Source: Chiloscyllium plagiosum (lineage: Eukaryota). Taken from it: a stretch of DNA of 64,000 bases. The stretch spans positions 46,356,137-46,420,136 of the forward strand of contig NC_057719.1 in the NCBI RefSeq assembly GCF_004010195.1, read 5' to 3'. A program made the position numbers and the translations under genes. Under the pieces are notes generated by a model that saw only the letters and a program-made list of their open reading frames with translations, made no database searches and was not told the DNA's origin. Positions 4,661-63,549 of the stretch are shown here, piece by piece (within the stretch, counting starts at the first letter, position 1; each line of letters starts with the position of its first letter).

Positions 4661-4746
4661 GCCTAGATTAGAGAGGTGCTAGAAAAGCACAGCATCTGAG
4701 GAACAGGAAAATTGACGTTTCAGGCAAAAGCACTTGATCAGGAATG
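4661..4746 (-). mobile_element. Short Penelope-like pLTR fragment (family B) with degenerate hammerhead
   Basis: Reverse complement reads ttc-CTGATCA-A-GTGC-TTTT-GCCT-GAAA-CG-TC. 10-bp TSD ACAGTGCAGT at 4651-4660 and 4747-4756. Homologous to 41375-41600 and 58157-58291. Confidence 0.75.
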
Positions 4747-4819
4747 ACAGTGCAGTAGCAATCTGATTTTAAATTAAATGCTAACCAACTGGCCATGTTT
4801 CAGAAGGCTTGGGAAATCT

Positions 4820-5150
4820 GAATTGAATTAAATTGAATTAGTTTTATTGTCACATGTACTCAAATAGGTACAGTGAAAAGTTGACAAGCCGTCACCTACA
4901 ATGCCATCTCAGGTACAAAGGTACCTAAGTACAATCCTTTGTTACAGTACTGAGAAGTGAAGAAAAAAATTACATTACTGCTGTACACAGTATAACCATA
5001 GGACAGATAGTCAGAAGAAAGAAGTTGAAAAGACATCATCACAGTCTCTTTCCGAGGGCTCTCTGCAGCAGACCAGCAGAGGGTACCTCCACATGGTCTG
5101 ACTGCTGGCTGCCACCATGCTCTACCAAAGTGGAGATGGAAGCAGCCAGA
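4820..5150 (-). mobile_element. Non-LTR retroelement 3' tail with a Rex-Babar-like terminus
   Basis: (AATTG)n tail followed by tttattgtcacatgtac...tacagtgaaaag, shared with the Rex-Babar end near 27390 and with 60040-60260. Confidence 0.5.
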
Positions 5151-6375
5151 TCTGACCATTAAATGTTTCACTATGCCAGAATGGGTATGATAACCTCTCA
5201 CTCACAAACCATCTACCACTTTTCACAAAAGCCTCTCACAGATCACAGCCTTTCCTTGCTGCTGTGATTGACCAAACTTCTCACCTTTGCCTCCCCACCT
5301 TGAGACTGCATTATCTAACCCAATACCATATCCCAATTTTTATCTTTCATTTTCTGATTGCCATCTTTAACCTCCACAGTATGGTTCAATTTGTTCCACC
5401 TCACAACTCCTGAATGCTAACACATTTCCTCTCACTATGTCCCAATATTTTCCTCCTTCTCAATTGGAGTACTCCACCCCCCATCACTCTGTTCTAGACT
5501 TAGGACTGGATTTTCCTGGATGCAATTGGAAAGGCAGTTTGAGAAACTTACCAACTTGTCTTTTGAAAAAGAAGGCCCTGCCTGTCATATTTTTGTTCTG
5601 AGGAGGCAGAGGCAAGGTGAAGTCCAGCCCAAAGCAATAATGGAGGAAGGGAGTTGGCCAGGCCAGACAGGCAGGCTGGAATGACCACCTTCATTTCCTG
5701 GACTCTGGCCCAATCTCAATGAGGAATGTCAGGCCGTTAAACCTTCATCTCACATGCCCCACCCACCTCACCTCATGTGTCCTTTTCATGCTGCATAGCC
5801 CATGTTCCCTCATATTTCTGATGTCATTTCCATTTCCCCTCCTATTTCCAATACCTCACATGTATCCTCCATAGCTTTCACTCAGTATCTACTATAGAGG
5901 TGTTATTCAAACACAGGTAATAGTGAAAAGTCCATTATAACAAAACTTTGTAAAAAACCCTTAAGTCGTCAATCTGTTGTAAAAAGCAAACTACCAAAAA
6001 CATCTATTTCACTAATCAAGCCAAAAAAGGTCAATCCTTCGAAAATCCACAAAACTATCATGGAAATTCTGAACTCAATCTCCTGCTGAGATGAGTGGCT
6101 TTGAGCACTTTGAGTCTTAGACAAGCATTCATAAGCTCAGGTATAACAATAACTTAACGAATCTGAAAAATCTTTTTTCCTAAAGTACACCAGATGTTGT
6201 GACAATCCAAGCATTCCAGGGGCAGATAGGTTTTTTAATCCTGAATGCTGTTGAAGACATTTTCTCATTTTAGAAATAGTCTGGGCATTTAGATCACTTC
6301 AGATTATTAAACTAGAGATCACTGATATGAAATCACATGTAACTTACAGCATCTATTAATGAAATTGAAAGAATA

Positions 6376-6948
6376 ATGCTTTTTTTAAATTTTAAAGTCT
6401 GTCAAATATAGAATTCCAGGAGCTGTTGACTTAAGTTTTGTTCCCCATTTGGGATCTGGGATGGCCCCGAGTTCACACCTCCTCTGAGAGGCTTTGAACC
6501 ATGTCTACTTACACAAAGGATTTGACCCCATTCAATTGGCGAGGGACCAGGGTGTTAAATAGCCGAACAAGGATGAGAGTACTGTATATGGGCTAAACTG
6601 CACTGGTGAAAATGACCAGAAAAAATAGGGGTCAGAAGCAGCTCTCCCTTGCTGTTGTGTAAGGGGTGCTGAGTCAACCTGACTTGACAAAATATGGGCC
6701 TTTGTCTTCCTCCCATTTTTCAATTCTCCAACCTTGAATTACTACCAACCATGCTCCTTTTTAAAAAAATTTAAAGTCTGTCAAATATAAAATTCCAGGA
6801 CCTATTGACTTATGTTTCATTCCCCATTTGGGACCCAAGCTCCCCCCGGCCCCGGTTCACACCTCCTCTGAGATATCTTGAATGATGTCTACTTACTCAA
6901 AGGATCTGACCCCACTCAATTGGCAAGGGGTCAGAATTTTAAATAGCC
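6376..6948 (+). repeat. Diverged direct duplication of a ~190-bp unit (6376-6564 and 6751-6948)
   Basis: Colinear shared blocks ttaaagtctgtcaaatata.aattccagga, ttccccatttggga, gttcacacctcctctgaga, atgtctacttac, tgacccca.tcaattggc, aaatagcc. Confidence 0.9.
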
Positions 6949-8934
6949 TACCACCAAGTCCCAGTCTTTTCTGATTGCCAGCCTGTTACTAGCAGGAAAT
7001 GTGACAAAAATAGCAATGAGGTCTTGCCATTGAACTCAACAGGACTTCTGCCTTTCAGCAATTTCTGGGAATTTCACCCATTTCCCCCGTACCCACCCAA
7101 ACACACTCCTTCCCTATGCCAGCATAAATACTGTGATTTATATTTCAAATTCAGGATTATTTATGAATAATGTCAGATGAAACCCATTAGGTTTACTTAA
7201 GGCACCGACAACCACAAGAGAAGTTTTCAAACATCCTTCATTTGTTTCTAAGTAATTGAAAAGAGATCAACAGGAATTCATTCCAAATAGGGAACTCTCA
7301 AAAGCTGAAAAACAACTGACAAATAAGAAACACAGCTGCAGTACTGTTGCTAATTTAAACGCCAGTCTGAAATGTAGGTTTGTGGAATGCAATAATCACA
7401 TTTTCTAGCTGTTGGTTCCAAATACTAGCAACAGTTAAATTGTGCTATTCAAAGTAATGTATTGTGAACTTCTCTCTATTGCATAACATTAGCGAGATGA
7501 AAATATACACAACAGAGTTATGTATTCTTGTGAATAACTTGAGGATGAGTCAGTGATCAGACACTTCAAGCATTGAGAGACATTCTCATGAATGCAAATC
7601 AGTTAATTACAAGGCCATAAACATTGCTTCCCACGCAAGTGTAATCTTGCTCTTCACTGGAATGACCTAATTGTAGAATTAGGCATTTAATAAATGAATA
7701 AGTTATAATGAAGGGAATTGTTTTACCCTTAATACCAGAGCAAATAATTATGTTGTTTGTTATAGACTAGCTTCATGATATCTCACACAATACAAGCTTT
7801 AGTGTAACATTCGCCCACTTAATTTTATTCCTGTCCTAATTTTTTGCCTTTCCTTAAATCTCAAACTTGATCTAAAATAATTAAGTCAAACAGGAAGATT
7901 CATTTTCTACTAGCCAGGACCTCCAACTTTTTAAAAAAGTTCTGCTTTTATGCCAGATCAACTTGTCTGTACCAAACTCCCTAACATAAAAAGAAAAATA
8001 CTCAGTATGTCTGGCAGCATCCATGGAGAGAATAGATTTCTGTTTTGTCCTAGTTTGATTTAGTTTTTGTGTACAGCCAATATACTGGCCAGGATTTTGT
8101 CAGTCTTTGGCATCATTACTTCTCTGAAAATTACTTGTGAGGTTCTCACAAGCATAGTTAATCATAGAAATCCAAAAATTGTTGCTGGTGATTCTGAACT
8201 TTGTCACTGAGTGTGTTGTTGAATTCCATGCAAATATCTGAACTGATGTGAAGTTGCCCCTGTAAGCTGCAAATTTCACTGTAAATACTCATTAAAAAGT
8301 CGTAGAGTGTTAAATGAGATGATAGCGTAGTAAGTTCATAACTACTGCTGAAAAATATCTTTGGTTATGAAAACTTAATTATAGATTTTCAGAATAATAA
8401 AGTTTGCCATAATACTATCACAACTTTTTCATCGTCACTAGATCAAAATTGTAAAACCTAATAGTTTTTCGGTTATAGCTCGTCAGATAAGACAGCAGTG
8501 GCTCACCACCACCTTCTTGAAGGGTATTAGGAATGGGTCATAAATGCTGGCCTTACCAGCAATATATGGCAGTCCAACACCCACAAATTTGTGTATGTGT
8601 ACAAGCAAAGAGAAAATTACTGAATGTTTTGAAGCATATTTTGAAGACAGCTCAACCATTCCTGCAGTGCTAATTTTGACTGCACATGCCAACACAATAC
8701 TAAATTTTTTTTTCATCAATGTGCAGCATTTTGGGAAAAAAATTCATGCAAGTTAATGTTAGAATCATAAAAGGAAAAAAATTGTTTAGGCCTGAAAACA
8801 AACTCAGTTAACCTGTGCCTCTTTGCTTCAGATGTAGTCATCACACAAATTTTTTAATGCCTGCTTAGTCAATTGGTCGTTGTGTCCAGCCAGCTGAGTG
8901 GCTGTATATCTGAGCAGGAAATGCAAAATTGTGT

Positions 8935-10444: not shown

Positions 10445-11171
10445 TTGGATGTACAAACCCAAACAAGCAGACAAAACATGTCCAGAAACCCTAGCCACTC
10501 TCCCCTACATCAAAGACATCTCGGAAATGACTGCCAGACTACTCAGACCCTTTGGCATCATGGTAGCCCAAAAATCTACCAACACACTAAAACAGCAGCT
10601 AATGAACTTGAAAGACCCTATATAGACAACCAGCAAAACTAATGTCATTTACAAAATACCATGCAGGGACTGTAACAAACACCACACTGGACAAACAGGC
10701 AGAAAACTAGCCACTAAGATACATGAACACCAACTAGCCACAAAAAGACATGACCCTCTCTCACTAGTATCCTCACATACGGATGAGGAAGGACACCACT
10801 TCGACTGGGACAACACATCCATCCTAGGACAAGCCAAACAAAGACATGCACAAGAATTCCTAGAAGCGTGGCATTCGAACAGGAACTCTATCAACAAACA
10901 CATTGAGTTAGACCCCATCTCCCACCCCCTGAGAAAAGGAACAGGAAGTGACTTCACAGGAAATAACATTACCACAGGAAATGAGATCACCAATCCAAAG
11001 AAACCCAAACATATAAATAGAAAGCAGGAATTTTCAGCTTGCTTCGCCTGAGGCCCACTGAAAATGTTAGCTACTAGGGTAACGAAATGTCTGGAAATGA
11101 ACCTTCCAGTTCAGCGAGCAAACCTACATCCAAAACCTCAACCTGAACTACAAATCTTCTCAAAACTCGCT
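10445..11171 (+). mobile_element. Penelope-like element (Poseidon-type), 5'-truncated: RT C-terminus, GIY-YIG endonuclease and pLTR
   Basis: Translation TLPYIKDISEMTARLLRP...NVIYKIPCRDCNKHHTGQTGRKLATKIHEHQLA...FDWDNTSILG...EFLEAWHS. 13-bp TSD ACTTCCTATTATT at 10432-10444 and 11172-11184. Confidence 0.92.
11055..11094 (+). ncRNA. Degenerate minimal type-I hammerhead ribozyme in the pLTR
   Basis: CCA-CTGAAAA-TGTTAGCTACTAGGGTAAC-GAAA-TG-TC-TGG. Helix I CCA/TGG, GUC cleavage triplet. G8>A and ACGT>ATGT changes make it probably inactive. Confidence 0.7.
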
Positions 11172-13839
11172 ACTTCCTATTATTGGAACAGCCATGATTA
11201 AAACCATGACCAGCAGTGCCACTGAAAGCATTGAAAATTATAGTATGTTCCCAATTACTCCCACCAGCATCACACAGTCTCTTCTGATTTACAGGCTGCA
11301 GATAATGTAAGCATGCATCTCTTGTTGTATCTCTTCCCTTCACTGTAACTCTACTTTCCTGCCTTTCTCCTTTCAAAATCCCAAGAAGTGAAACTTGGCC
11401 AGTCTGTGGTGAGACTGATGATGATGAAACCTGTACTTTAGAGCTTAGTGTAGAGATGAGATCTGCACAATGGTGAGTCACTTGGAATAAGTGGCCTTCA
11501 GCTGCGACGGGAGAAAGATGGAGCAGAAATGAGTTTGCCAGAGTTTGCAGTCATGCCTGAATTCTGCTTAGAGGATGCAGATGAGGACCCTGATGAGGTG
11601 GCATTCAGGAAAAGGCTGGTGACTACGAATAGACAAATGTTTAGTATAGTAACAGACCAGCTAGAATGCTCTGTCCCTGTCAAAGAACATGGACTCATGA
11701 CTCTTTTAAACAACTGCAATGTGTTGTCATCCTCAAACCTGAAATAAGCAGAGCTTTGATATTCCCTGATCTTACCTTGATCCTCACTATTGAGTGAATC
11801 TAGATAACTTTGTGATCAATATGATCTTTATAATATCCAGGTACAACCACATGGTTAGTTTTGAATATGGGGTGAAATGATTGGCAAAATGAGATGGGAC
11901 AAACAGCCTTTCACATCTGTAACTATCTTACATTCTTGTGATATCTTATTGGCTGTTCATCACAATGACATGTTTTTCCCATGCAGTACATTGTAACAAA
12001 TTGTATGTTATAATTGGATTTTTCTGAAGGATCATGCAGCATAACAGTAGGCCAGATCTACAGATGTATATGAGCCTTTCTGTCACTATTTCTATTCCGA
12101 GTTTGACTCTGTGCTGTTACTAAACCATCCACTGCAGGTATGTGGAAACCATTGGGTGATCACAGAGCACTCTCATACATCCCAACTGCTTGCACTCCTT
12201 TGGCCATCATCTTCTTGTTCTTCATATTCTTAAAAGAGCAATTCCTATGGGAAATAAATTAATGCAGGTAATAGTACTGCACATGAAAGGAATTGGACAG
12301 TGGACGTCTTACAAGAATGTAAGTGCCAAAATGTTTTTAAAAAGTAGGAAAACCAGACAGACTTAGCCTCAAAACCAGTGCAATAATCTTTTATTTTGGC
12401 CTTATAAATTTAATGATTGATGTGCTCAACTTGATTGGTATCCAATTAATGTGATCTTAAATGGCATAAGGACTGGAAAATAATAATAGACAGCATTAAA
12501 AAAATACTTTTGAACGATTGACATCTAATTTGCAAGGCCACTGCCTGATTTAAATTCAAGCTTCCTCCACCCATTCATTTAGCAACTGATAAAGTACTTC
12601 CTTGTGACATGTCCCCATAATGCCTTGGCATAATGTTCTGTAAAATGGATGCATGGATTGACAGAGATGGAAGAATTAACTTTGATGTCCCCAGGTGCAC
12701 AAATTACTTGTTATGGAAGTGTTCTTGTATTCATAATTTTTAAATAAAAAAACCTCCTTGTGCTCTTCATTTCTGATGCTAATGGAATTTGCAAAGCTGT
12801 GCAAGGTGTCTAAATAATTAATGAAATTCATAGCAGGATTTGCAGCTGAAAGTGATGATGAGTTTTTTTTTGCCTTAAGACATCTTATGCCATCTGTCCA
12901 CTTGTTATTAAGGAAAACAAAAATGGATTAAGTACTCAGATACAATCCTATAATTGAGCATTAAGTCACCATGTCATTTGTTCATATGCAAAGGCACTCA
13001 GAAAGTTGTAAAGCCATATGTTACTGTGAAGAAAAATTTTTATATTCCTGTTGCAGCTGCCCACTGGTGAATGTGACAAAATGGCTGCTTGTGCTTTTTT
13101 TTAGCTGATACAAGACGGTTGAAGCAAACTGTAGCTGATGCAGCATTTCACATAGCTCAATCACTGGCCTTCACAAACTGAGAATCACAACAGAGTCTTA
13201 GTAAGTTAGGGCTAGAATGCAGACAGTAAGACTCACCTATTTTGACAACAGTACCTTCGATAGAAACTGTCTGATTTGAAATTTCCTATTCTAATATGAA
13301 ATGGAAAGAGGAAGTTTGACCCACTTAAATGAGGCCTTTTAAATAACTATAGTTATGTATGAGAGTAGACGCATCCATACAACAATAATAGTTAAAATGT
13401 ATTAGACATTGGGCAGTTTAATTAGATTTCAGTAGGCACTCAGTCTTGGATGCAGGGACTGACAAACACCCTTGGAGAATCTTAATAAGAACCTGGTATC
13501 AGCTAGTTCAAAGTTTGTTATTTAGTACAAATTAGAGGAAAAGTCTGATCCCACAATAATCAACTTTTAGGTAACTGTTACTACATATGAAATACACCTA
13601 TATGGGTGTGTTAAAATTATAAATTCAACTGAAAAATAACATTAAGGGATTCAGCTGAATTTTCTTGAAGTAAATAGTTATAGTCAGTATAGAGAAGCTT
13701 CTGCTCTGTTAGCAGGACAATCAGAACAGCAAAAACATATAAACAAGATAATCTCGTAAGAGTACCAAGAGACAAATAACATAGCAATAGTGCTGAAACA
13801 TTTCTGAAACAGGGTCGCAATGACCTCAAGAGAATAATC

Positions 13840-14186
13840 ATAAGATGCATGGATAGGGTAAATAGACAAGGCCTTTTCCCTGGGGTGGGGGAGTATAGAA
13901 CTAGAGAGGCTTAGGGTGAGAGGGGAAAGATATAAAAGGGACCTAAGGGGCAACTTTTTCACACAGAGGATGGTGCGTGTATGGAACGAGCTGCCAGAGG
14001 AAGTGGTGGAGACTGGAACAATTACAACATTTAAAAGGCATCTGGATGGGTATATGAACAGGAAGGATTTTGAGGGAAATGGGCCAAGTGCTGACAAATG
14101 GGACTAGATTAACTTAGGATATCTGGTTGGCGTGGATGTGTTGGACCAAAGGGCATGTCTTCATGCAGTACATCTCTATGACTATA
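13840..14186 (+). mobile_element. HER1-type CR1 LINE 3' end
   Basis: ORF 13916..14107 (RGERYKRDLRGNFFTQRMVRVWNELPEEVVETGTITTFKRHLD) and ctctatgact tail. Confidence 0.92.
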
Positions 14187-14724
14187 AACAATTATGGCTT
14201 CACAATCTACCAAACAGCTTAAAGAACAGGGAGGAATGGCAGAGAAAAGTGATAAGAAAAGGGACAGAAAGAGGTCATGTCTCCTAGAACCTTCAAGAAT
14301 TCAAATGATTTGATAAAACAGTAAAATTGATTGAATTTCATTCCCAGCAAGGGGATTTGAATAGGAGCTATCTTATTTAGTAAAACTATTCACATTGGAA
14401 CCAGAATATGGTGACTGTTAGAGGTTTCACTATATTTTACTGTATTATTCACTGTAAAACGCAAGTGATAATAAATAAATCACTCATTAAAGTAATGAGA
14501 ATATAGTGTATCCTGGTATCAAACTTCTGTTTTAAACATCTTACAGCACGTAAATAGAAGAGGTTATAAATGGGAGCTGTTAGACAGAGAGACTGTGTTT
14601 GCTTGACCTTTAAAAGTCGGGTAAGAGGGAAGCTGCTCCCGAACCTGTCAGCTTTGTCTCAGAATTGTAATATTAGGTGTAACTATGAATACCTATGAAT
14701 AAGTAGGGTTGTAGAGTTTGACGT

Positions 14725-15130
14725 TGGGGCTAATTTCCCTGGAGCATTGGAGGCTGAAAGGTGACCTTATAGAGGTTTAGAAAATCATGAGACGCATGGA
14801 TAGGATAAATAGACAAGGTCTTTTCTCTGGGGTTGGGGAGTCCAAACCTAAAGGGCATAGGTTTAAGGTGAGAGGTGAAAGATTTGAAAGGAACATAAGG
14901 GGCAACTTTTTCATGCAGAAGGTGGTGCATGTATGGAATGAGCTGCCAGAGGAAATGGTGAAGACTGGTACAATTACAACATTTAAAAGGCATCTGGATG
15001 GGTTTATGAGTAGGAAAGGTTTAGAGGGATAAGGGCAAACTAGATTAGGTTAGGATATCTGGTTGGCATGGATCAGTTGGACCGAAGGGTCTGTTTCCGT
15101 GCTGTGCATCTCTATGACTCTGTGACTCTA
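14725..15130 (+). mobile_element. HER1-type CR1 LINE 3' end
   Basis: ORF 14787..15032 has the same CR1 C-terminus. Tail ctctatgactctgtgactcta. Confidence 0.92.
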
Positions 15131-15605: not shown

Positions 15606-18600
15606 CTCCTCTTTAGAATCCTTCTCCAAAAAATTATTTCCCCTGTCTAAAATGTGAAACACTTAAAAATACGACACACTTACATTTTTGACATTATTTC
15701 TGTTATTACAATGTGCTTGCAATACATAATTGTGTCCTTAAATTGATTTGAGCACCATACATCAGATGAGCAACTATTAACAATGTCGAGTGAGTAATCT
15801 GTACTTGGAACTGCAATTGACCCAGGATCCATTGTTTACTTATTGTAAAGTTTCACATTTTCAGGACTTCTTGAGTGAAAAAATACTTGAACATTTCGAG
15901 ACTGAATGACCTAACATTTCACTTTAAGATTATGCACTCCTTGATCTCGATTTTCTCTTCAGAGGAAATAGTTTACTGTATGTACAAGCTGAAACCTTTT
16001 ATCATTTATGAGGACCCCAATTAGATGACTCTTCTATCTAATCTCAAGATCAAACAACACATAATGGACCTTGAAGGAATTATAAAATTACATGAGTTAA
16101 GTCTATAATTGGTATTCACTTCTTAATGTTTCTGCTCTCATTTATACTAAAAAAAAGCAATTCATTTTCAGCTTTAAAGAAATAAAATTGAATAATTCAA
16201 AATAACTTGCCATTGAATGATCTGAAATTCTATCAGTAGGAGAGGACTGATTAGTAATGCAGGGCCATAATGATCTATTGTAGTAAGAGCATTATAAGTA
16301 GTTGTAAAACATGCGCCTCATTAGCATTCACCAACCTATTCTGCAACTCATTGGGGAATACTCTTAGTGGATATGCTTCAGCACAGGAAAAGCTGACTGG
16401 AATGAATTTCACAGATGCTGCGTAAGAAAACAATTTCTGGTGTGCTTGATAATGAGCATAGGTGAGCCCTGAGTCCCTGAAGGCAGCACATATCAATTTA
16501 TTGAAGAAACAAGCTAATCTTAAGGAGCATGGATTTGTAAAAAAATGTATTACTTGAGGATTAGACAATAAAGTTAAATCATAAACTACTGTTTGCTTTT
16601 CAATTTAACGCAGTTGTGGTTGAACCTTAACCACAAATGTTGCAGCACTTCTTAAAGAACTGATTGCCATCCCATTATCGTTTGGAACCTAGAGGTTTAC
16701 AACACAGAAAGAGCCCATTGGCCCATTGTGTCTTTGCTATATAACACAAAATCGAACCAGACAGTTCTACTGTCTCACCATAGCCCTGTGTTTTGGTTCT
16801 AGTTCAAACATTTATCCAAGATTCCTGTAGAAGATACAATATTCTTTGCCTCAATCTTTCCCAAAGTTGCCTGAATGCTAATACTTTTAATGTCTTCATA
16901 TTATACACCCCATTGCTGGCTGATCACCTTTTCACTTCAACCACCACTTGGTCAGTGGTTTTGCAATTCCTCATTTATCTCAATTGGAAATCGGCACTGA
17001 TACTTGCTGGCTTGCCTGCATTTGTGGCAGGGTGGAAGCTAATAGGGGTGTGAGTGATGTGGGAATCTGCCAACTGGTCATAACCATCATGGCATCTCTC
17101 CATTGCACTGGCAAGGCACTCTGGAATCACAGACTGGCATTACAAGGCTCACTGCCAACTAGCATTAACAAGGTACAGCAAGGAGTTTTTGTGCACAGGG
17201 GCAGGCATTCAGCTCACAGATTGGACCAAGCTGCATTTCAGGGCTGCTTACTTTTCTCTTAGCACTTGCTTATCTAATTCTGATCTGCATATTCATACTT
17301 TCCATGCCTTGCGTGCCTTGCCTTATCGTGTCATGCCAATCTGCACAGTCACACAACCAGAAAGCCTGCCTTGCTGCTCAGCTGTCCTCAGTGAAGCGGG
17401 TGGATATCTTGCTGTATGCTCTGTCAATCTCACACCCACTCCAAGTACCAGGAGCTTATGCAGAAAACACATGGCATATGCAGCACATAGGCAGCCATGT
17501 TTCAAAGCCTTAATGAATAAGCTTTACTGAAGCCCATGGAAGGATGGTCAGTCAAGGGGTGCTGGGTCAGTAAATCAAATGCAGATTCTGATACCAGCCC
17601 AGAGAATTGGCCATGGCCAGCTGTCCACTCAGGATGATTTTGATCAGGGAATCCATGCATCTACAATTCAGGGAGTGGATCAAGGTTAGTCCTGTGGCTC
17701 CACAGCAGACAATATGGGAGATATACAGCCACCAGTCAGGGCTCTGGATACTTCTTGTCCAGGGCTGTCCAATTGTGTCAGCCCTCCCTCTTGGAGACCA
17801 AGGAGCTAGGCTGTTCCTTATTTTTTTGTCACTCCTCTTGGGGTGTTTTTGTATCCTGTCAGTTTCCTTCAACTCTGCCTCTGATATGGGCGGTGGGTAA
17901 CACACAGTAGCTTGCCCCGGCACCCAGAGCATCTCAGAAGAAAATGCATTCACCTCTTCTGCTGTGTCCATTTCAGATTCTGAGGTATGTTCAACACTTG
18001 AGTTTGCAGCTTTCATATGGTCCATGTGCTTGTTCAGAACTGTCACACCTACCCAAATCTTATACATGACTGAACCTGACCTCACGTCAACCACGCCTCT
18101 TACTCATGCAGGGTTACTCCCATGAGTCCTACATGAAGCTTGGCCCCTGAAGTGAACTTTCTCTCTCACTGATAGAACCTTGTGTCCAGCATTGGCGTTC
18201 CTGATGCTATTTCACCCTCCCCCTGTTCAGGTTCAGGAAGATCAGGTTTAACCTGATGTGGAGTCTTCTTCCCATTAGCAACTCTGCTGGAGCTATCCCT
18301 GCAGTTGCATGAGGGATAGTCCTATAATGTAGTAGGAACCGGGGCAGTTTGGTATCTGGTGAACCTGTAGGCTGTTTCTTTGAGTCTGCCTTCAAAGTTT
18401 GGACTGCTCTTTCTGCCAGACCATTGGATGATGGATGGTATGGATCTGTCCTTATACAATTGATATTATTCAACTTTAGGAAATACTCAGCTTCCCTACT
18501 TGTAAACGATGGTGATTTATCTGTGACTAATATTTCCGCAAGTCCGTGTATTGTAAAAGATGCACACAGTTTTCTAGGCATCCCAGTGTTTGATGAATTG

Positions 18601-23953: not shown

Positions 23954-24303
23954 AGTATCATAGAATCCTTACAATGTGGAAACAGGCCCTTCAGCCCAAT
24001 CAGTCCACACTGATCCTTTGAATTGTAACCCAACCAGGCCCATTTCTCTTACCCTCTTACTTTACATTTACCCCTAACTAATGCACCTAACCTACACTAT
24101 GAACACTTTAGCATGGCCAATTCATCTAACTTGCACATCTTTGGGTTGTGGGAGGAAGCCAGAACACCTGAAGGAAATCTACGCAGTTACGGGGAGAATG
24201 TGCAAACTCCACAATTGCCCGAGGTGGGAGTCGAACCTGGGTCCCTGGCGTTATGAGGCAGCGACACTAACCATTGATCCACCATGCCACTCCTGAGCCA
24301 CTG
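23954..24303 (-). mobile_element. HE1-type V-SINE, full length, inserted in Gypsy gag
   Basis: tRNA-like head (ccaggttcgactccc on the minus strand), V-core ggagtttgcacattctcccc and CR1-like tail. TSD TGGTT at 23949-23953 and 24304-24308. Confidence 0.9.
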
Positions 24304-28649: not shown

Positions 28650-29900
28650 AAAAAGGATCATTGAAAATATCTCAAAAGGGGCTAATTGGGCATGAATGGG
28701 GCTCCAACCAAAAGACTAACTTTTGCTTTCACATCCAGAACATCACTGATGTTGGTGTTTGATGTTAGATAATTTTATGTTTGATGGTCGATAATTTGGG
28801 GGATTTTTATGCAGCAGGGGTAGAAACTGCTTTGAGTGCAGAATGGATGCCCAGATTGGAGCACATATCTCAGCAACTGGCCACTAAGGGATGAGTCCAA
28901 GTTCTTGCTCCTCTTGAGTTGAAGTCAATGCGCTCTTCATCAGAAATTGCATTTTGTGAATGGAACCTTTTCCTTTTCAAAAACAGAGCTTGTTCCTGCG
29001 TAAGGAATATACAGGGCTATAAACATCATGTGCTTTATTGAATGATACATAGTTCCTGACCATTGCTTACTGATCATTGCACCCCTTGGGAATTCAGCAA
29101 TCTCAATGGATTATTCTGCATATCAGCTTCCTCATGGGTGGTTGATTCTTCACTGACTTTGTGTCAGTGACCTATTGCTTGGTCATGTACAAAGCAAATC
29201 GACAGATACACAAATGTTCTTCGAAGAAACTCAGAAGGATCAAATAAAAGTTAAAAGAAACAATGCACAGCATTGCCACAAGCAATGCAGTACAGAGCCT
29301 GAAGAAGGGTCACTGGATCTGCTTTCTCTCCTCAAATGTTGCCTGACCTGCTGAGTTTCTCCAGAAATTTCTGTTTTTGTGTTAGTGCAGAGCTCAGTAT
29401 TGGGTTCTAATTCCCACCGCAACAAGTGACTTGGCGAAGTAACGTGCTCCCAGTTGAAATGCAGATTCTTTAGAAACAACTGCTGTGTGAGATCCACTTA
29501 TGCTCCTTGATTTCTGAAGACCTGCAGGCTTTAAGAGCTCCTGCTCCCTTGCCATCTCTTTACAGTCTTTCCAGATCTTTGCTGCCTTCCTGCTGCTGCC
29601 CTTCCTCTTCACCTGGAATATTAAGTGTAAACCCAGCAGCAGTCCCATGTCAGTAATTTTGAACATGACTATTCAGAAAAATAATTGCTGCTCATTCCAG
29701 ATGGCGAACTATTTTAGAGCCAGGCAGTAGTCAAATGGACCAAAAAACATCCATAAGAGGCCTAAAACAATTTAAATTAATCATGGTGAGGATGCCTTTA
29801 AAGATCGTGTCAGACAACTCCATGCCATGATTTGCTGGCCTGGTTAAAAACGTACAGTGTCAGGCACACACACAGGCACCAAAGTTTGAAAATAGCCCTG
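28650..29900 (-). mobile_element. PIF/Harbinger transposase fossil
   Basis: Colinear decayed motifs on the minus strand: DLTQQLFLKNLHF, TALLVA...FNFY, xVTD, IAEFPR/VQ and FLKRKRFHSQN, corresponding to HARBI1-like DLSE.QC.RRLRF, ALPVA..ALNF, QVTDAL, IAGFP.VQG and NRKGFHSLN. Confidence 0.7.
29299..29383 (+). mobile_element. Short Penelope-like pLTR fragment (family C) with half-deleted hammerhead
   Basis: Starts exactly at CTGAAGA-AGGGTCACTGGA. TSD AGT(A/G)CAGAGC at 29289-29298 and 29384-29393. Homologous to 39799-39940. Confidence 0.7.
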
Positions 29901-38859: not shown

Positions 38860-39465
38860 ATTCTCACAGACAGACAAACACACACACATTCAAACTCTCA
38901 CTCACTCTGACCCATATGCACAGACTCATACTCTCACAGACACGCACACCCTCCCTCACTCTCTCTCTCTCTCACACACACACACGTCAATGAGGTGAAT
39001 TTGCATTTGCAGGTTTGCATCTGCAGATACATTGTATTTTGTTCAAAAAGCACACAAGCTGTAGGCAGTCAGTCCATGTGACATTTTATAAATCCCTTCT
39101 TTGGAAATAGAACCTGTGTGATTCAAGGTTAGGATACAGACAGACTCTAACTTCACATCTTTAATGCATTGCCTGAGCTGAGATGTCACTTTGTTTTAGA
39201 TACTGATACAACTTTAAGTTATCTCAGGGCTGTGACTTGAAGAAAATTCTGGAATTAATCAATTTCAATCAATCAATCGAAACCTGCTTGCCCATTCTAA
39301 GTGATTAAGGACTTAACAGCAATCTAGATTTGTTCAATACATTGCATCCGCTGTATGACACTTTGATCTTTTACTGTGTCCTATGATCCTGATGAGGGAG
39401 CAGTGCACCGAAAGCTTGTACTTTCAAATAAACCTGTTGGACTGTAACCTGGTGTTGTGTGATTA
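38860..39465 (+). mobile_element. Penelope-like 3' region (family D) with CA/CT microsatellite and hammerhead motif at 39388-39418
   Basis: C-CTGATGA-G-GGAGC-AGT-GCACC-GAAA-GC-TT-G, then caaataaacctgttggactgtaacctggtgttgtgtga, shared with 63293-63487. Microsatellite at ~38865-38985. Confidence 0.7.
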
Positions 39466-39798: not shown

Positions 39799-39940
39799 GA
39801 TAAAAACTGAAAGAAATGTGGATGCTCTGGTTCAGAAACAAAAACAGAAGTTTCTGGAAAAGCTCAACAGATTAGACTGCATCTGTGAAGAGAAATCAGA
39901 GTTAATGTTTCGGGTCCGGTGACCCTTCCTCGGAGCTCCC
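39799..39940 (-). mobile_element. Short Penelope-like pLTR fragment (family C) with hammerhead motif at 39901-39936
   Basis: Reverse complement GCT-CCGAGGA-A-GGGTC-ACCG-GACCC-GAAA-CA-TT-AAC, with a perfect 5-bp helix II. TSD TTTA(C/T)AACACTA at 39787-39798 and 39941-39952. Confidence 0.8.
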
Positions 39941-40871
39941 TTTATAACACTAACATGGTAGAGCAGAATTAAAGGACTAACTGACCCAGTCCTGGTCCTA
40001 TATCAGACCTTTTTACAATGATATGTAAAATATGGGCTGAACTGGCATTTCATCTTGAAATCCCATCCTGGACACCTTGAAGGCTCTAAAGCATCTGAAT
40101 GGGCCAGTTTTGTGAAAAATAAACTTTATAAACAAATATGTTGCTGAAACACAGCTTTGAAACTTAAACCGTTTCTTCAAAACAAATTCTATTGGGTATG
40201 CCTGGTATTATAGGTTTATTTTCTTCAGTTTGGGCACAGTTGCATTTTTAAAATAGGAGTGATGTTCTCTTTTAGGAAATCATTAAATTGGTTTGACGAT
40301 TTCTGTCACAGTATGTAAGCAAAGGGTACAGCACTAATGCATTTTTCAAAATTAGAAGAATTACACTGTGATTCATACCGATAATTACAGCAGATTCTCA
40401 AGTCTAAATGTAAGTACCGGAAGAGGTATCAAAGATCAAAATTTTCTAGGCTGCATTCTTGCTGAGAGTAATTTCTCAGTCACTGATACTGCTAATTGTG
40501 TTTTTGTATACTGCAATACAAGTGATGGAAGATTGAGTATATTTCCAGTGTAGGTTATTGCCAAACCTATGTCACTACATCATCAGCCTGACTTTTCTTT
40601 GTTTAACAGTTGTTTAATTTCAATGCTAGAACCAAACAATGAAGCAGCAGTAAGTGAGCTATCTGGTCAATCTTGCCTGTGCCAGTTCTCTGAAGGAATT
40701 ACCACATCCAGAGGGGTTACCATTAACTAGACATTGAACTAGGCCAAGAAATAAATTCTGTGACTACAAGTGCAGAGTATTCTGCAGTGAGGATTTCACA
40801 AAGCCTGCACATCACCTATTGTAAGTGGTATTGTTGAATCAAACACTGAGAATACTGCAGATACCCAGCAG

Positions 40872-41050: not shown

Positions 41051-41374
41051 TATCTGGCAGCATCAATAGAGAGAGAAAGAGAATTAATGTTTCAAGTTTG
41101 GTATGACTCTTTTTTCAGAACTGCGAATAAAGTCAACGTACTGCAGATGCTGGAAATCTGAAACAAACACAGAGATACACAGAGTGTTATTGAAAACTCT
41201 ACACTGAATGAATGCAGCTTCAACAATATTTAAGAAATTGGTATAATCCAGGCCAAATTCATTGGTATCCCATCCATCATCTTAAATATTCACTCCCTTC
41301 CACATTGTTTAAATACTTCTACTGCTATTTTCAAAATCAAATAAATGCAAATGGCCAACATTTCAGTAATTGCA

Positions 41375-41600
41375 GAGGCAAAAGTGTGGACAGCAGATGC
41401 TGGAAACCAGAGTTTAGATCAGAGTGGTGCTGGAAAAGCACAGCAGGTCAGGCAGCATCCGAGGAGCAGGAAAATCAACGTTTCAGGCAAAAGCCCTGAA
41501 GGGATCCCTGATGAAGGGGTTTTGCCCGAAACGTCAATTTTCCTGCTCCTCAGATGCTGCCTGACCTGCTGTGCTTTTCCAGCACCACTCTGATCTAAAC
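41375..41600. mobile_element. Palindromic Penelope-like pLTR insertion (family B) with hammerhead motif at 41505-41537 (+)
   Basis: ~86-bp inverted arms (41411-41496 and 41515-41601). CTGATGA-A-GGGG-TTTT-GCCC-GAAA-CG-TC. Imperfect 14-bp flanking repeat at 41361-41374 and 41601-41614. Confidence 0.85.
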
Positions 41601-42729
41601 TTCCAGCAATTGCATGACATTTCAAGTTACAACAAGGCCTCTATATCTAGTGCGGCGCATTAAATTGATCTGTAGTTGAAAAAATCAGCTACTGTTTTCT
41701 ACTGGCTCAAATAAAGCCTTTAAACACAATTGATGGAATCTTGTTTTTTCGAGAGACTAGATGTGAATTTGGGCTTGGTTTATTTTGCATGATTCTGTTC
41801 TTCTCAGCTGATTGCATACACAGACGTGAGTAGAACAGTAAAACCCGAGCAGATGGGCAGAAGGTTCTGAAGGCCACCAGGACCTTCCAGGGATCAGCTT
41901 TGAACAGCATATGGAAAAGGTATATGAAAAGAAGTTTATTCTTTGCACATAAGGAACATTACTCAACCTCTATCAGTTGCTCTCAGCCACCCTTGGAGAT
42001 GTCTGACACCAGATGGAATGTAGCTTCACACTTCAGCAATGCTCCTCTATATATTCTCCATCAGGAGAAAAAGGGTGTACTATTTCTGTAGGATCCAACA
42101 GGAGACATCCCAGTTGATAAAGGCAGCCTGAGTTGAGGTTGCTGAGGAGGGCATAGAACCTGGCTTCAGAGTCACAAGAGGATGAGTGCTGTCTTGTGCT
42201 CCACCAGGGTTAGTGCCGCTTTCTACTCAATGCTAACTCACACTCAGAGAGGCATAAGCATTGCAAGTTGTCACTGCAGAAGACTGTCACACACAAGACT
42301 GGGTACCTGTCTTGCCTGGTCAGACGCTTCATGAGCACTGAATGTGTCTCAACTAACTAGAGCTAGCAATGTAACACTAGTTGCACACAATGGTACTGCC
42401 TTGCAATCATGTGCCAGGGCTCACAGTTAAAACAAAATGGAAGCTCCAACACTCTGTTGCTCAGGCATCATTAGTCCATTGATGGTTCCTTTCAACTAAG
42501 ACAGTGTACATGTCTAATACATTTTCATTTAATGGTTACATGGGACAAAAACATAGCCATAGTTTCCATCTGGCTATCTCAGTGGTTTCTCCGTCACACA
42601 CATCATACAGTCTTTTATTGTTTTTCATGATGATACAGCATCACCATTCATTCAGAGTTCTCACTCCTAAGATGGCCGATATCCTATCTTTCTCAAGGTC
42701 AGTCAGCTCAACTCCCAAACATCTCTGCA

Positions 42730-45505: not shown

Positions 45506-46079
45506 TGGTTATATAATTGAGAAGGTTACTTTGCATCTTCAAATGTGGACCCCAAAGCAGCCATAACTATTACCTCTGTGTCAGCAATGTTTCAGTGAAT
45601 TTCACTGTTACAAAGCTGGAGCTGGTCTAACACTGCAGGAACATCCAATTCCTTAAACTTCATAGAATTAATATCTTATTTAAGATACATTTTCTAGATC
45701 AATTACAGTTCAAATGATTATTTTCATTTGAAACAGATCGAGTGAATTTAGTAAAATGTCACCACATCTCAGAATTTATTGTTGTTGCACTTGTTTCTGT
45801 TAGATTTTGTGAAAATAATTGTCTGAACATAGCATATATTAAGACCTTAGCACATCCCAATAATTAATTATTTTTAATTTTGAACCACTATATACATAGA
45901 TGGCAACTAATCTATCCACAATCAGATTCCACAAACTGCAACTGAGTGAATGATAATCTGTTATGATAGTACTAGATGAGGGGTGAACTTTGGGCACTAG
46001 AGTATTTTTTTCTGCCTTATAGGGAAAGAGTGCTGTGAGATTTGTTCAGTATTAAAATGCTACAAATTTGTGCATTTTT

Positions 46080-50537: not shown

Positions 50538-51156
50538 CAGAGTTTTGAGTACAGGAGTGGGGGGTCATGTTGCGGCTGTACAGGGCATTGGTTAGGCTGC
50601 TGTTGGAATATTGCGTGCAATTCTGGTCTCCTTCCTATCAGAAAGATGTTGTGAAATTTGAAAGGGTTCAGAAAAGATTTACAAGGATGTTGCCAGGGTT
50701 GGAGGATTTGAGCTATTGGGAGAAGCTGAATAGGCTGGGGCTGTTTTCTCTGGAGCATCAGAGGCTGAGGGGTGACCTTATAGAGGTTTATAAAATCATG
50801 AGGGGCATGGATAGGGAAAATAGACAAAGTAATTTCCCTGGGGTGAGGGAGTCCAAAATGAGAAGGCATAGGTTTAGGGTGAGAGGGGAAAACTATAGAA
50901 GGGACCTAAGGGGCAACTTTTTCGCGCAGAGGGTTGTGCGTGTATGGAATGAGCTGCCAGAGATAGTGGTGGAGGCTAGTACAGTTGCAACATTTAAAAG
51001 GCATCTGGATGGGTATATGAATAGGAGGGGTTTAGAGAGATATGGGCCAAGTGCTGGCAAATGGGATTAGATTAGGTTAGGATATCTGATCAGCATGGCC
51101 GAGTTGGACCGAAGAGTTTGTTTCCGTGCTGTACATATCTATGACTCTATGACTCT
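50538..51156 (+). mobile_element. HER1-type CR1 3' end (young)
   Basis: Uninterrupted 167-aa ORF 50567..51070 of the CR1 ORF2 C-terminus and a (CTATGACT)n tail. Confidence 0.96.
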
Positions 51157-53649
51157 AAAATGTGACACTGAGTCACTTAAGAGCATACAGAAACAAGTGA
51201 TCAAAAGCTTGGTCAAAGAGGTAGGTTTCAAGGATTGTTCAATCATTAATCGATGACGGAGAGGGAGACAGGCAAGAAAATCTCCTTTCCAATATCAAAC
51301 CTAGAGTATGACAGTATTGCAACACTCTTTGCTTGTTTCCAGAAAAAAACAAGAAATTAGGAAATGTACATTGTCCTGGTGATGTAACAAAGGTGTGATC
51401 TAATATCAGGCTAATTATATCAAGTTCAGTTTTCATTTCTGACCTGCGCTGAGTTGAATGACCTTTGGCAGGGCATGAACTGAGAAGGTATTTTAGTATT
51501 CATGAGTTAAGGAGGTGAAAATCTTCCAGCACTTAGAAAATCAACTGATCCAAATCCATTTTTTTTAACAGCCAATCAATTGACTTGCCTTCCAGCAACA
51601 GAATGGTTTGATACTGAACTCAATATATTGCCACTAAGTCAGGTGTTTTCATTCTTTTCTAAACATGACGACCACTGTAATAAAAAAGCAAACACTGAAC
51701 TGAAATTTAATATTGTGTTATTAGTTGGGTAATTGAATAACCTGTCAGTGCTCAACTGGATAGTCGCTGAAAATGCAGTCCCATAACACAAAGTCCATGT
51801 CATAATGCTTTGCAAAAAGTTAAACATGTGCTTAACTAGGAACTTTATCACACTCTTGATGATTTAAAATACTTAAATATTAAATCTAACTGTACACATA
51901 ATTTGAAAAAAATTTCTAAATTAGTCAGCACAGTGATAAATTAGTGCTATTCATCAGAATATGTCTGCAGTGCAAGGTCCATCTATGGTAATGCTGCAAA
52001 AATAAAGAAGCAAATCTTTTAAAAGTGTACAATCAAAATCTTAAGCTCTCATCTGCAGACTGCAGGTTGATGCTACATAGCATGGAATGTTTCCTGTGTC
52101 ACTGAATACTTTGTCTTGTTCTGAACTTTTGATTTTCTAACAGGCTATTGTAATTGATAACTAGAAGCAGATTGGTAAAAATTGCTTTGTATAACTGAAT
52201 TATCTATAACCTACAAGTATGGTATGTAACAATGCTGGAAATAAATTTTCACTGTAAACTACTACTAATAAACAACTGTGAGAATGATTTACCAACATCA
52301 GTTGAACAGGTCAAATTTCAATGAGTCAATACATGATCAAATTACAATTAAAGCTTTTCTTTTGTATTTTAACCTCCAAATTCTCTCATTACCTCTCCTT
52401 AAGGTGCTTACCCTTGCCAGGATATAGTTACAGGGGGTGTTATTCACCGTTTGGCTCCTTGCCTATATGAAACTTTCCTTATACGAACATAGATATTGAG
52501 CACTGACAATTGTAGGCTAGCATCTCAGCTGAGCCTGATCTTAATTCCACCTGATGTCTGCTTCTTGGGGTCAGTAGATAGAAATCAGGCAGTGAAAACT
52601 TGTTCGATGATTCTTCCCAAACCCCGGAATGCTGAGGGCAATTTTACTATCCCTGTTGCCATCCTGGCCAAATTAGCTAACTGAGCATAGACCAGGAAAC
52701 AAACATTAGACAATAATATCCTTATACATTCATTCTATCATCTATGATGCCTTTGCCACCAGAACCATGAGAATAAAAACTAGTCCTTGTATTTAGACTC
52801 AGTTCGGTTTTCTGTTGATGAGTTCACTTTGGCCTGGTTGGATTTGATCATTTTGTGCTATTTAATGTATTATGTGTTCTGTGGTTTATCAGTTGCCTAC
52901 AATGACTGCTGGAAATAAACCCTGGGGTTTGGCATGCTTACAACAATCATTTGCTTTATGGTTTACATTTCTGTTGTAAATGAATGTCAGTAACAGTGCC
53001 AACATTCATAAAGAGTACATCTCCTGCGATGCCATGAAATGTGCAATGTTTCTCAATTTATTAAAAGCATAGCATTTTAACAAACTCACAATTGGTTTAC
53101 ATGCAAACTTTACAAAATATCACAACTGAAAACACCAGATTGTGTTAGGGTGTACATTTGCCTTTATTCGGTTAAACTCTTTCTTTCATACACTAATCAG
53201 AACACTGTGCAGTCTTCTTCATTCTGGACTCTGTGGTTTAATGTTTAGGACTAGAATTATTTTTAAAGTCTCAGTAATGACTGGAATTACAAAATTGTAA
53301 TCAGTGAGAAAGGATGCAGCCTGTTTAGACTGAAAAAATATATAAATGTGGTGGCCACATGTACTCTCATCTTTCTATGCAAAGGTTATGATGAAAGGTT
53401 CCGTGCTAAAAAGTTATAGAGATACAAGGGTATATACCAGCCTTCAAGTAGTGAATAGCTCCCACATTCAATAAATGCAAGGCCCTCCGTATTTATAAAA
53501 TTTCAGATGCTGCAGCTTGTGCAAATGTTCCATATTTACATCAAAATATATTCTTGAATGCTTATTTGTTGTACATCAAAAATCTCCATTTAAGATGTAT
53601 TTGATATATGCTTGGGGTAACTGAGAGAAAATTATGAACTGTAGTTTAC

Positions 53650-53803
53650 GCTCCAAGGAAAACAGCTCCAGCCTAGTCAGCATCTCCCTATAGCTTAAAC
53701 CCTCCAACCCTGACAACATCCTCGTAAATCTTTTCTGAACCCTTCCATGTTTCACAACTTCTATCGTTTAGCAGGGAGGCCAGAATTGAATGCAGTATTC
53801 CAA
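53650..53803 (-). mobile_element. HER1-type CR1 internal fragment
   Basis: Reverse complement matches 50605-50760. Confidence 0.8.
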
Positions 53804-58156: not shown

Positions 58157-58291
58157 TCCTCTATTCCTGATGGAGGGCTTTTGCCCAAAAATCGATTTTC
58201 CTGCTCCTCGAATGCTGCCTGACCTGCTGTGCTTTTCCAGCACCACTCTCATCTAGACTCTGGTTTCAGCATCTGCAGTCCTTGTTTTTAC
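58157..58291 (+). mobile_element. Short Penelope-like pLTR fragment (family B) with degenerate hammerhead
   Basis: ttc-CTGATGG-A-GGGC-TTTT-GCCC-AAAA-A-TC-GA. Flanking repeat TGCAGTG at 58150-58156 and 58292-58298. Confidence 0.8.
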
Positions 58292-59159: not shown

Positions 59160-59759
59160 GTTGTGGTTCTGTTCGCCGAGCTGGAAGTTTTTGTTGCAAA
59201 TGTTTCGTCCCCTGGCTAGGCGACATCATCAGTGCTTGGGAGGCTCCTGCGAAGCGCTTCTTTGATGTTTCCTCCGGTGTTTATAGTGGTCTGTCCCTGC
59301 CGCTTCCGGTTGTCAGTTTCAGCTGTCCGCTGTAGTGGTTGGTATATTGGGTCCAGGTCGATATGTTTGTTGATGGGGTTTGTGGATGAATGCCATGCCT
59401 CTAGGAATTCCCTGGCTGTTCTCTGTCTGGCTTGCCCTATGATAGTAGTGTTGTCCCAGTCGAATTCATGTTGCTTGTTGTCTGCGTGGCATGGCATTCA
59501 TCCACAAACTCCATCAACAAACACATCGACCTGGACCCAATATACCAACCACTACAGCGGACAGCTGAAACTGACAACCGGAAGCGGCAGGGACAGACCA
59601 CTATAAACACCGGAGGAAACATCAAAGAAGCGCTTCACAGGAGGCTCCCAAGCACTGATGATGTCGCCTAGCCAGGGACGAAACGTTTGCAACAAAAACT
59701 TCCAGCTCGGCGAACAGAAACACAACAATGAGCACACGAGCTACAAATCTTCACACAAA
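59160..59759. mobile_element. Young inverted (palindromic) Poseidon-type Penelope insertion
   Basis: Near-identical ~240-bp arms (59160-59399 and 59488-59726) encoding AWHSSTN.INKHIDLDPIY. 11-bp TSD CTTCTTTCAAT at 59149-59159 and 59760-59770. Confidence 0.95.
59652..59690 (+). ncRNA. Minimal type-I hammerhead ribozyme with intact core; mirror copy at 59196-59235 (-)
   Basis: GCA-CTGATGA-T-GTC(G)CCT-AGCC-AGG-GAC-GAAA-CG-TT-TGC. Helix I GCA/TGC, palindromic ACGT in place of helix III, predicted cleavage after 59687. Confidence 0.8.
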
Positions 59760-61829: not shown

Positions 61830-62700
61830 ATAAGGATGGATAATGTTAGCCATTGTTTGATGGAATGGAGCATAAAAATAGGAGAGTCTTACTGCAACTG
61901 TACAATGCAGTAATGAGACCACATCTAGAATACCACGCATTTCTGACTTACTTATTTAAGGAGGAATCCACTTGCATTGGAGACAGTTCTGAAAAGGTCC
62001 ATTAGGCTGATTCCTGGAAGGAAGGCATTGTTTTATGAGGAAAAATCGAACAATCCATATTCATTGGAGTCTAGAAGAGTGAGAGGGTACTCTTGTTGAA
62101 ACATCAGGATGCCAAGGGGCTTGACAGGATGAATGCTGACAAGATATTCACCCACATGAGGGTATAGAGTCATAGGGTCATAGAGATGTACAGGTATCTA
62201 AAATCAGGAGACACAGCCACAAAATTAGGGGTCTCCCATTTAAAATGGTGATTGAAATAACTCCACAAGGCCAGTATGCCAGCACCAAGTCACCCTTTAT
62301 TTACATGGCACTGATCCACCTAGCTCAGAGCCAGTTCATAGAGAGCAGAACCCCACACACTCCTGTTTATATCTGTCAGCCAGTGTTCCCTGATTGGACC
62401 ATATTAACACCCCAATCAGGGAACTCAAATTCTATGAGGTCCATCTTGCTGACTTTGTTACAATCACTCAAGTGATGAGGACGGATTTCTTCTGTTAGAG
62501 GGTCATTAACCTTTGGAATTCTCTTCCCTAGACAGCAATGGACTTTGGGTCATTTAACATGTTCAAGATTGAGTTAGTCAGAATTTTAATTGACAAGGGA
62601 ATGAAGCATCATGGAGGGGAACAGGAACAACAGTGAAGTCAAGACCATGATCATACTGAATGGCCACCATATGGCCTACTTCAACATCATGTTCTTATAA
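61830..62700 (+). mobile_element. Old CR1 LINE 3' fragment split by a solo LTR
   Basis: K.RRVLLQLYNAVMRPHLEY at ~61875-61935 and RVINLWNSLP at ~62500-62530. Confidence 0.8.
62253..62471 (-). mobile_element. Solo LTR of the same family as the Gypsy at 17.8-25.35 kb
   Basis: tgaaataactccaca...ccctgatt.gacca...caatcagggaac...ttctatgaggtcca...ttacaatcact shared with 24656-25350. 5-bp TSD GTGAT at 62248-62252 and 62472-62476. Confidence 0.9.
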
Positions 62701-63292
62701 TCACAAAGCCTCTCTAATTTTCATTGGTCATATATAAAGCTGATAAATATAATTGGTGACAAAGCTGTCACTGAACCCATCACTGTATTTATTGTATTCC
62801 CTCTAACACCATTTGCTTTACATCTGCCTCAAGTCACTTGAAATTGAGATTTTGGTCTTCCAACTGCCTCACCTTTGAACTTCCACAAACAATTGTTGAT
62901 TTCAACCTCTCTATATCCAACTTGTAAAGCCTGTAATCTCTCCAAACCTGGTTATCTCTGCTGAAATAGCTCAATTACCTCTTCTCTGTGTACAACAAGT
63001 TCAGATTTGAATCCCTGCATGGGAATACAATTGCCACCCAGTTCCTTCTATGGTATACACTATCCTAACTCAGACATACGTCATTGTTTCTTCCTTATTT
63101 CTGGATAAATGTCCAGGAAGTCCCTATCTAAAAGCATTGTTGGAGCACTTGATTACAGCACACAGACTGCAGAGTTTTAACAGTATTCTCAGATAACAAT
63201 AAGTACTGACCTTGTCAGTGAGACTGACACTGCAAGAATGAAGAAAAGCAAATGACCAGTTTCTCATGAATTCTCTTCCTCATTTGAACTTG

Positions 63293-63487
63293 ATGTGGAG
63301 GAGCCAATGTTGGACTGAGGTAGACAAAGTTAAAAGTCACACAACACCAGGTTATAATCCAGCAGGTTTATTTGGAAGTACTAGCGTTCGGAGCACTGCT
63401 TCTTCATCAGGTAGCTGATGAAAAAGCAACGCTCCGAAAGCTAGTGCTTCCAAATAAACCTGTTGGACAATAACCTGATATTGCATA
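63293..63487. mobile_element. Palindromic Penelope-like pLTR insertion (family D) with two back-to-back hammerhead motifs
   Basis: Minus 63379-63412: AC-CTGATGA-AGAAGCAGTGCTCC-GAAC-GC-TA-GT. Plus 63415-63446: CTGATGA-AAAAGCAACGCTCC-GAAA-GC-TA-GTG. Flanking repeat ATTTGAACTTG at 63282-63292 and 63488-63498. Confidence 0.85.
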
Positions 63488-63549
63488 ATTTGAACTTGTT
63501 AAGGCCTCCAAATAGAATATTCAATCTCACCTCTTTTCATGGAGTAAAT

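Follow-up and report, generated by a model that had tools for sequence, protein, structure and literature searches.

Minimal type I hammerhead ribozymes were described in 2014 in the Penelope-like retrotransposons of metazoans, where the motif combines CUGANGA, one extra base, a G10.1-C11.1 pair, GAAA, a palindromic 15.2-16.2 step, a UH cleavage site and a short helix I, and where several families occur per genome, mostly as lone truncated copies and as pairs lying close together on opposite strands (Cervera and De la Pena 2014, PMC4209133). That work reports about 4,000 motifs in coelacanth and about 9,000 in Xenopus, as well as a U3-A8 variant of the core in Schistosoma. The Poseidon element PAc of Anolis carolinensis has two internal priming sites that give an optional tail; both DNA strands are cut and extended, the main template is uncut RNA, and cleavage by the hammerhead requires protein (Frangieh et al. 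2024, PMC11167929). Endonuclease-bearing Penelope-like elements show 5' truncation, an inverted pseudo-long terminal repeat (pLTR), a 30-40-bp tail and target-site duplications, and the rotifer pLTR has a putative TATA and initiator; in the earlier view, inverted junctions arise by antisense-RNA self-priming and solo pLTRs by recombination or deletion (Craig et al. 2021, bioRxiv 2021.04.23.441226; Arkhipova et al. 2013, PMC3846280). Animal retrozymes of the non-LTR kind (LTR, long terminal repeat) are also hammerhead-bearing, pLTR-derived and non-coding, and are present in the one chondrichthyan sampled (bioRxiv 2026.07.22.740005).

Here we analyze 64,000 nucleotides (nt) of the shark Chiloscyllium plagiosum (assembly GCF_004010195.1, contig NC_057719.1, positions 46,356,137 to 46,420,136; hereafter the window), in which a sequence-only reading had listed a dozen minimal hammerhead sites in four Penelope-like families. 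The window was set beside a genome sample of 120 pieces of 10 kb, taken at round coordinates from the 41 largest contigs, with small contigs outside it (1.159 Mb without N). By the sequence features tested, the motifs are the minimal hammerhead that the 2014 work found in Penelope-like elements, so the kind of element is already known. They probably sit in dead, mostly decayed pLTRs of Poseidon- and Neptune-type Penelope-like retrotransposons, each family carrying its own minimal type I motif, with short copies (stubs) that would have arisen by the route proposed below. Cartilaginous fish are not among the taxa covered in the portion of PMC4209133 drawn on here, and no publication on the shark motifs or on run-off stubs was found in a search that had most subscription journals and Repbase outside its reach.

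Motif architecture and coding links of the families

A profile search of the window finds a family-repeat copy at 12 of the 12 listed sites, and all of these are pLTRs of Penelope-like elements. With a strict descriptor (CUGANGA, helix II of at least 3 bp, GAAA NN U H, helix I of at least 2 bp), the window gives two matches, where 100 shuffles average 0.03, and 577 kb of the genome gives 38, where each of 10 shuffles has 0-1. Reversed-sequence controls gave no profile hits. A chance origin of the motifs is rejected by these two kinds of control.

The layout described from the window is recovered in the family majority motifs. The CUGANGA...GAAA...UH core is present in those of families A1, A2, B, C and D, so that CUGANGA and GAAA hold throughout A-D, and family E has a UUGACAA variant. 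Helix II has at least 3 bp with G10.1-C11.1 as its first pair, and one extra base follows A9. Helix I is 3-4 bp long in A1, A2, B1, C, D and E, and in the commonest B subfamilies it has only 2 bp plus U.U and A-U, the published descriptor minimum being 3 bp. The palindromic 15.2-16.2 step, which takes the place of helix III, is CG in A, B and E and GC in D, and in C it has mostly decayed to CA or UG. The four helix II sequences said to be unrelated are not all so, since B and C share the 3' segment and family A is two subfamilies. The four family-specific helix I pairings do exist, and they belong to A1, A2, B and D, while C has AGUU/AACU.

Structural covariation, also claimed from the window, is borne out by compensatory changes. 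These affect the third helix I pair of D (C-G 58, U-A 47, U-G 23, C-A 4; n=135), the second helix II pair of C (G-C 60, A-U 13, G-U 9, A-C 5; n=98), the third helix I pair of A2 (C-G 39, U-A 12; n=56) and the core 3:8 pair (C-G in 225/245 B and 78/96 C copies, U-A in 46/50 E copies), in tables that include search-selected loci and whose counts are copies rather than independent events, each change being probably one event. Such changes between families and subfamilies support the view that the motif has been under selection in master elements, and it is likely that only a few master elements have kept it functional in this way. After insertion the motif appears to decay in a particular manner. 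G12 is altered in 62/263 copies versus 16/263 for G5; a CpG is obligatory because the G10.1-C11.1 pair lies directly before G12, and G12 is the general base of the reaction (PMC6155905). From this we infer that CpG decay preferentially removes G12.

Of the two family A subfamilies, A1 is the young one (97-98% identity), and A2 is older (about 92%). Family E lies outside the window and was found by a scan for the U3-A8 core, which it combines with a palindromic 4-bp helix I; it is young (best matches 93-99%) and of Neptune type (locus L295), with 15 copies in the 1.159 Mb sample (examples at L171:7014, L195:7851, L276:1779 and L286-L315). No U3-A8 core occurs in the vertebrate rows of the supplement alignment of PMC4209133 used here.

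The pLTRs of B-D, which had been assigned by structure only, can now be joined to reverse transcriptase (RT) and GIY-YIG coding sequence, and these links support the Penelope reading as a whole. An endonuclease match is followed within 1.3 kb by a same-strand pLTR 33 times for A1, 38 for A2, 26 for B, 8 for C, 2 for D (one spurious) and once for E. RT motifs, a Cys linker and the endonuclease lie upstream of the pLTR in C (L070) and D (L142, L145, L147, L156), and the coding remnants consist of linker plus endonuclease in B and E and of thumb plus endonuclease in A. The Cys-rich linker between RT and endonuclease is thus present in B, C, D and E and absent in A, whose A1 and A2 pLTRs lie after a GIY-YIG-like frame as in Penelope/Poseidon. 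As the linker is found in Neptune and Nematis and is absent in Poseidon (Craig et al. 2021, bioRxiv 2021.04.23.441226), B-E would be Neptune-type and A1 and A2 Poseidon-type, although the linker alone fits Nematis as well. Relatives of the C-family RT piece carry PF00078, with PF01541 also in 2/24, and a shark, skates and a ray are the sources of the named relatives of element peptides. Sequence searches of the PDB returned nothing relevant. At locus L320 an inverted pLTR precedes pLTR-ORF-pLTR (ORF, open reading frame), which is the canonical arrangement; the ORF begins after the pLTR, whereas in PAc it starts inside the hammerhead (PMC11167929). In family D (L145, L147, L156) a 3' untranslated region (UTR) of ~700 nt with a CA/CT-rich microsatellite separates ORF and pLTR.

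Several observations, besides the non-independence of the covariation counts, weigh against this reading. The hammerhead is the lowest-energy fold for only 2/8 majority motifs, and none of four window copies folds more stably than its shuffles. Helix II of A1 has an internal G.G mismatch in 35/45 copies, and the third helix I pair of B is U.U in 154/225. All Pfam GIY-YIG matches fall under the curated cut-off (E 0.014-0.2), and the frame in the window itself (10626-11048) has no GIY-YIG match in Pfam. No intact full-length ORF was seen among the best 150 matches per query; long runs of N interrupt most of the long element copies inspected, and the long open frames in six loci inspected are runs of N.

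Motif copies in the window

The copies found in the window are as follows.

4664..4747, minus: family B (Neptune-type) pLTR stub; motif 4741-4714 with G8C, decayed; target-site-like repeat on the flanks
7982..8032, minus: weak C-like pLTR fragment without a hammerhead (profile match E 6e-4)
10445..11171, plus: family A2 (Poseidon-type), 5'-truncated, with RT end, GIY-YIG-like frame (10626-11048) and then pLTR; motif 11058-11091 with G8A; target site duplicated exactly over 13 bp, at 10432 and 11172
29299..29383, plus: family C stub; CUGAAGA kept, GAAA and cut site deleted
39309..39458, plus: family D stub; motif 39389-39417 with an intact core, a helix I of 1 bp and a mismatched helix II
39804..39941, minus: family C stub; motif 39933-39904 with U4C, helix II intact
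41053..41125, minus: old C-like fragment, a weak member (E 0.002); motif from 41118 with G8A, helix II broken
41380..41601: two family B arms, head to head; the minus arm has a tail and lacks CUGA; the plus arm is tailless, and its motif 41508-41535 has an intact core and a broken first helix I pair
58159..58291, plus: family B stub with tail; motif 58167-58194 with A9G and G12A
59163..59759: two arms of family A1 (Poseidon-type, young), head to head, with remnants of the GIY-YIG C-terminus; motif 59232-59199 on the minus arm and 59655-59687 on the plus arm; target site duplicated at 59149 and 59760
63295..63487: two family D arms, head to head; the minus arm has a tail and carries motif 63410-63382 with A15.1C; the plus arm is tailless, and its motif 63415-63443 has an intact core and broken helices; target site duplicated at 63282 and 63488

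The constant core that had been described for the window thus holds for the majority motifs and not for most of the individual copies. It is intact in 5/12 (39389, 41508, 59232, 59655 and 63415) and altered or deleted in 7/12, and in the copies at 39389, 41508 and 63415 helix I and/or helix II is broken. Only 59655 and 59232 pass the strict descriptor, and only the former keeps the palindromic ACGU, which makes it the sole fully conforming copy. Six of the twelve lie in three head-to-head pairs or next to a partial partner (41380-41601, 59163-59759 and 63295-63487), and two partial copies are additional to the twelve (41380-41497 and 7982-8032, both minus). A search of the window with Rfam returned nothing at the gathering score. 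The density of motifs in the window is ordinary for the C. plagiosum genome.

Copy ends and the proposed origin of the stubs

The ends of copies were examined in the random pieces, the window and the flanks of search loci (there only for families that had not been the target of the search). This excluded 12 duplicate loci, matches near locus edges and matches that stop less than 35 nt beyond the cut site. The 3' ends fall at two positions ~35 nt apart, and in 94/112 inverted pairs a long 3' end is combined with a short one, by thresholds set by eye. The two 3' ends and the pairs of long and short arms fit the two internal priming sites and the two-strand priming of the Anolis element. Target-site duplications of 10-17 bp flank 42/161 solo stubs versus 1 in controls, so many solo stubs are whole insertion events. 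Unlike in the earlier view of solo pLTRs and inverted junctions, then, many solo stubs of the shark have target-site duplications of their own, and the pairs use both 3' ends. Short stubs also occur nested, with target-site duplications, in other Penelope-like families: B in A1 (L320:2978-3117), B in D and E in C (L142, L314).

The 5' ends of Neptune-type copies are clustered at the motif. As many as 228/471 arms start within -16..+10 of C3 (B 138/276, C 41/82, D 36/92, E 13/21), counting as separate the arms of one inverted pair, which are not independent (199/471 arms are in such pairs). An alignment artefact behind these peaks is rejected, as no peak emerges when uniform truncations are simulated and the profile stays flat. 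A TATA-like box precedes the cluster by about 30 nt, at -39 in B (weak), -35 in C, -39 in D and -36 in E, and B and C have TCAKTY at -4, which we take to be initiator-like. The 5' ends of D lie further upstream than those of C and E (median -6 vs -4, p 0.0014), and the D box is 3-4 nt further out. A splice acceptor before helix I in family E (a pyrimidine tract and AG), as in Drosophila, was considered and rejected, the stub junctions showing no shared upstream exon.

The priming shown for the Anolis element, together with the 5'-end cluster, the upstream TATA-like box and the shift in D, leads us to propose the following route. The element protein would cut target DNA and prime reverse transcription inside the RNA, at either of two sites, one ~90-105 nt and the other 125-140 nt downstream of the core; the protein of the Anolis element does so in vitro. 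The Neptune-type transcript likely starts at helix I, ~30 nt after the TATA-like box; priming in the first pLTR would then run off the 5' end of the RNA after 110-150 nt and leave a stub that opens with an uncut hammerhead, and priming at both DNA ends would give inverted pairs. The portion of the PAc report drawn on here does not describe stubs that stop at the motif's 5' edge (PMC11167929).

Alternatively, the 5' edges may be set by stalling or template switching of the RT at the folded motif, or by microhomology of the core at joints, instead of by the start of the RNA. Many junctions do draw on self-complementary bases of the core or of helix I, an arm of an inverted pair can have its end set by the joint, and the G that a cap might leave is not clear. 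We nonetheless regard this as unlikely, since A1 and A2 rarely stop at the same motif (0/16 and 4/22), the clustering holds for solo copies too, the stops fall after the structure has already been copied rather than before it, and the D ends follow the position of the TATA-like box despite a shorter helix I.

The stubs could also be non-autonomous elements, SINE-like (short interspersed element) or retrozyme-like, that propagate themselves in lineages of their own, and two points lean that way: 0/21 unbiased family E copies reach beyond -30, and animal retrozymes are reported as pLTR-derived. Yet the sequence of the stubs is that of the ends of ORF-linked copies, their 5' ends are spread and not fixed, they have no upstream TATA-like box, and close same-strand tandem copies are rare. 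Retrozymes are tandem head-to-tail units (bioRxiv 2026.07.22.740005), whereas the shark copies are single or head-to-head, and no tandem head-to-tail hammerhead units occur in the window. We hold this to be the least probable of the explanations weighed here.

The proposed start at helix I meets difficulties of its own. The TATA-like box of family B is poor, and the promoter of Drosophila Penelope is internal and TATA-less. In the Poseidon-type families no pile-up was found at the predicted starts (-23, -17), and 15/16 A1 and 18/22 A2 arms run more than 30 nt upstream. An extra base before the predicted start is G in 16 and A in 6 copies of B, G in 2 and A in 12 of E, and never G in C, so that a cap signature is not clear; several of the G stem from inverted arms.

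Cleavage, copy number and significance

A copy with the whole motif must have been templated by RNA uncut at that site. Some 5' ends do fall at the cut site: 24/471 arms start within -2..+3 of the first base after it, about twice the local background (p 5e-4), in an interval picked after inspection of the data and with several cases that are old or joined to upstream element sequence. Among solo copies there are 13 (p 0.013), and simulation shows no artefact; palindromes near the cut site favour inversion joints. The excess is a hint, and only that, of rare cleavage. In the proposed route the ribozyme would cut only occasionally, as a dimer or with help from protein, and a few percent of copies may derive from cut RNA. 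At L280 and L116 (family B), the 3' UTR of the element runs straight into the first bases that follow the predicted cut site, which could reflect template switching from cut RNA or a simple deletion.

The sequence-only reading expected a very large number of motifs genome-wide, and sampling agrees. Of the 399 pLTR copies in the sample, 277 span the motif (family E being scored under C in this tally); 132 of these have the full set of 12 core bases, 86 satisfy the descriptor, and the palindrome too is kept in 64. Scaled to the 3.56-Gb assembly, this gives about 850,000 motif-spanning copies (bootstrap 733,000-974,000) and, by descriptor plus palindrome, about 196,000 intact-looking ones (95% bootstrap 149,000-245,000). 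Raising the helix I minimum to the published 3 bp leaves 19/38 matches in the first 577 kb, or about 117,000 genome-wide. These counts are 10-50 times those for coelacanth and Xenopus, obtained with differing descriptors (PMC4209133).

To call this a ribozyme population, as had been done from the window, is right as to number and overstated as to function, given that the core is intact in 132/277 copies and that a same-strand sister lies within 500 nt in 15/280. A large working population that cuts host transcripts would draw on the roughly 200,000 descriptor-intact copies and on the small surplus of 5' ends that fall at the cut site (24/471). Against it, copies decay at CpG and elsewhere as neutral DNA does. 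Few have a same-strand sister nearby (66/280 even within 4 kb), so cis dimers are mostly unavailable, and 143/280 have an opposite-strand partner within 600 nt that is able to fold back. Published minimal motifs are inactive as monomers and weak as dimers (PMC4209133), 1/9 Xenopus dimers cleaved, and no RNA ends lie at the cut site in Anolis (PMC11167929). A working population of this kind is very improbable in our view.

Beyond the Penelope-like copies, the window contains an integrase-core fragment of LTR-retrotransposon type at 18207-18617 (minus; Pfam rve_3, E 2.5e-4, below the cut-off). LINE-type (long interspersed element) 3' fragments, presumably CR1/L2-like, lie at 13773-15130, 20924-21172, 27695-28249, 38502-38701, 45091-45506, 50537-51157 and 53650-53803, and a further dispersed repeat that we assume to be SINE-like lies at 23961-24287, 35884-36169 and 40901-40986. 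ARAGORN finds no tRNA in the window, and positions 405-904 are a 500-base run of N.

What this genome adds to a known kind of element is scale: with about 850,000 motif-bearing and about 200,000 intact-looking copies, there are enough to read mechanism from their ends. These ends indicate that most templates were uncut and that the motif lies at the likely RNA start in Neptune-type elements, and they hint at rare cleavage. New here are the links of every family to ORFs, counts from a genome sample with their intervals, the contrast in 5' ends between Neptune and Poseidon types, a vertebrate U3-A8 family and the loss of G12 through CpG decay. A reading that joins run-off stubs, a start-site map, a germline record of cleavage and a selected U3-A8 pair is tentative, with somewhat less than an even chance of being right in full. 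If it is, about half of the Neptune-type copies, several hundred thousand, would be run-off products like retroviral strong-stop DNA; the stubs would place the start of transcription at the first bases of the hammerhead; the ~2-3% that start at the cut site would be a genomic record of germline cleavage by a minimal hammerhead; and the young vertebrate U3-A8 family would mean that the catalytic pair is still under selection. The five families, together with the natural U3-A8 variant, provide a ready panel for cleavage assays.

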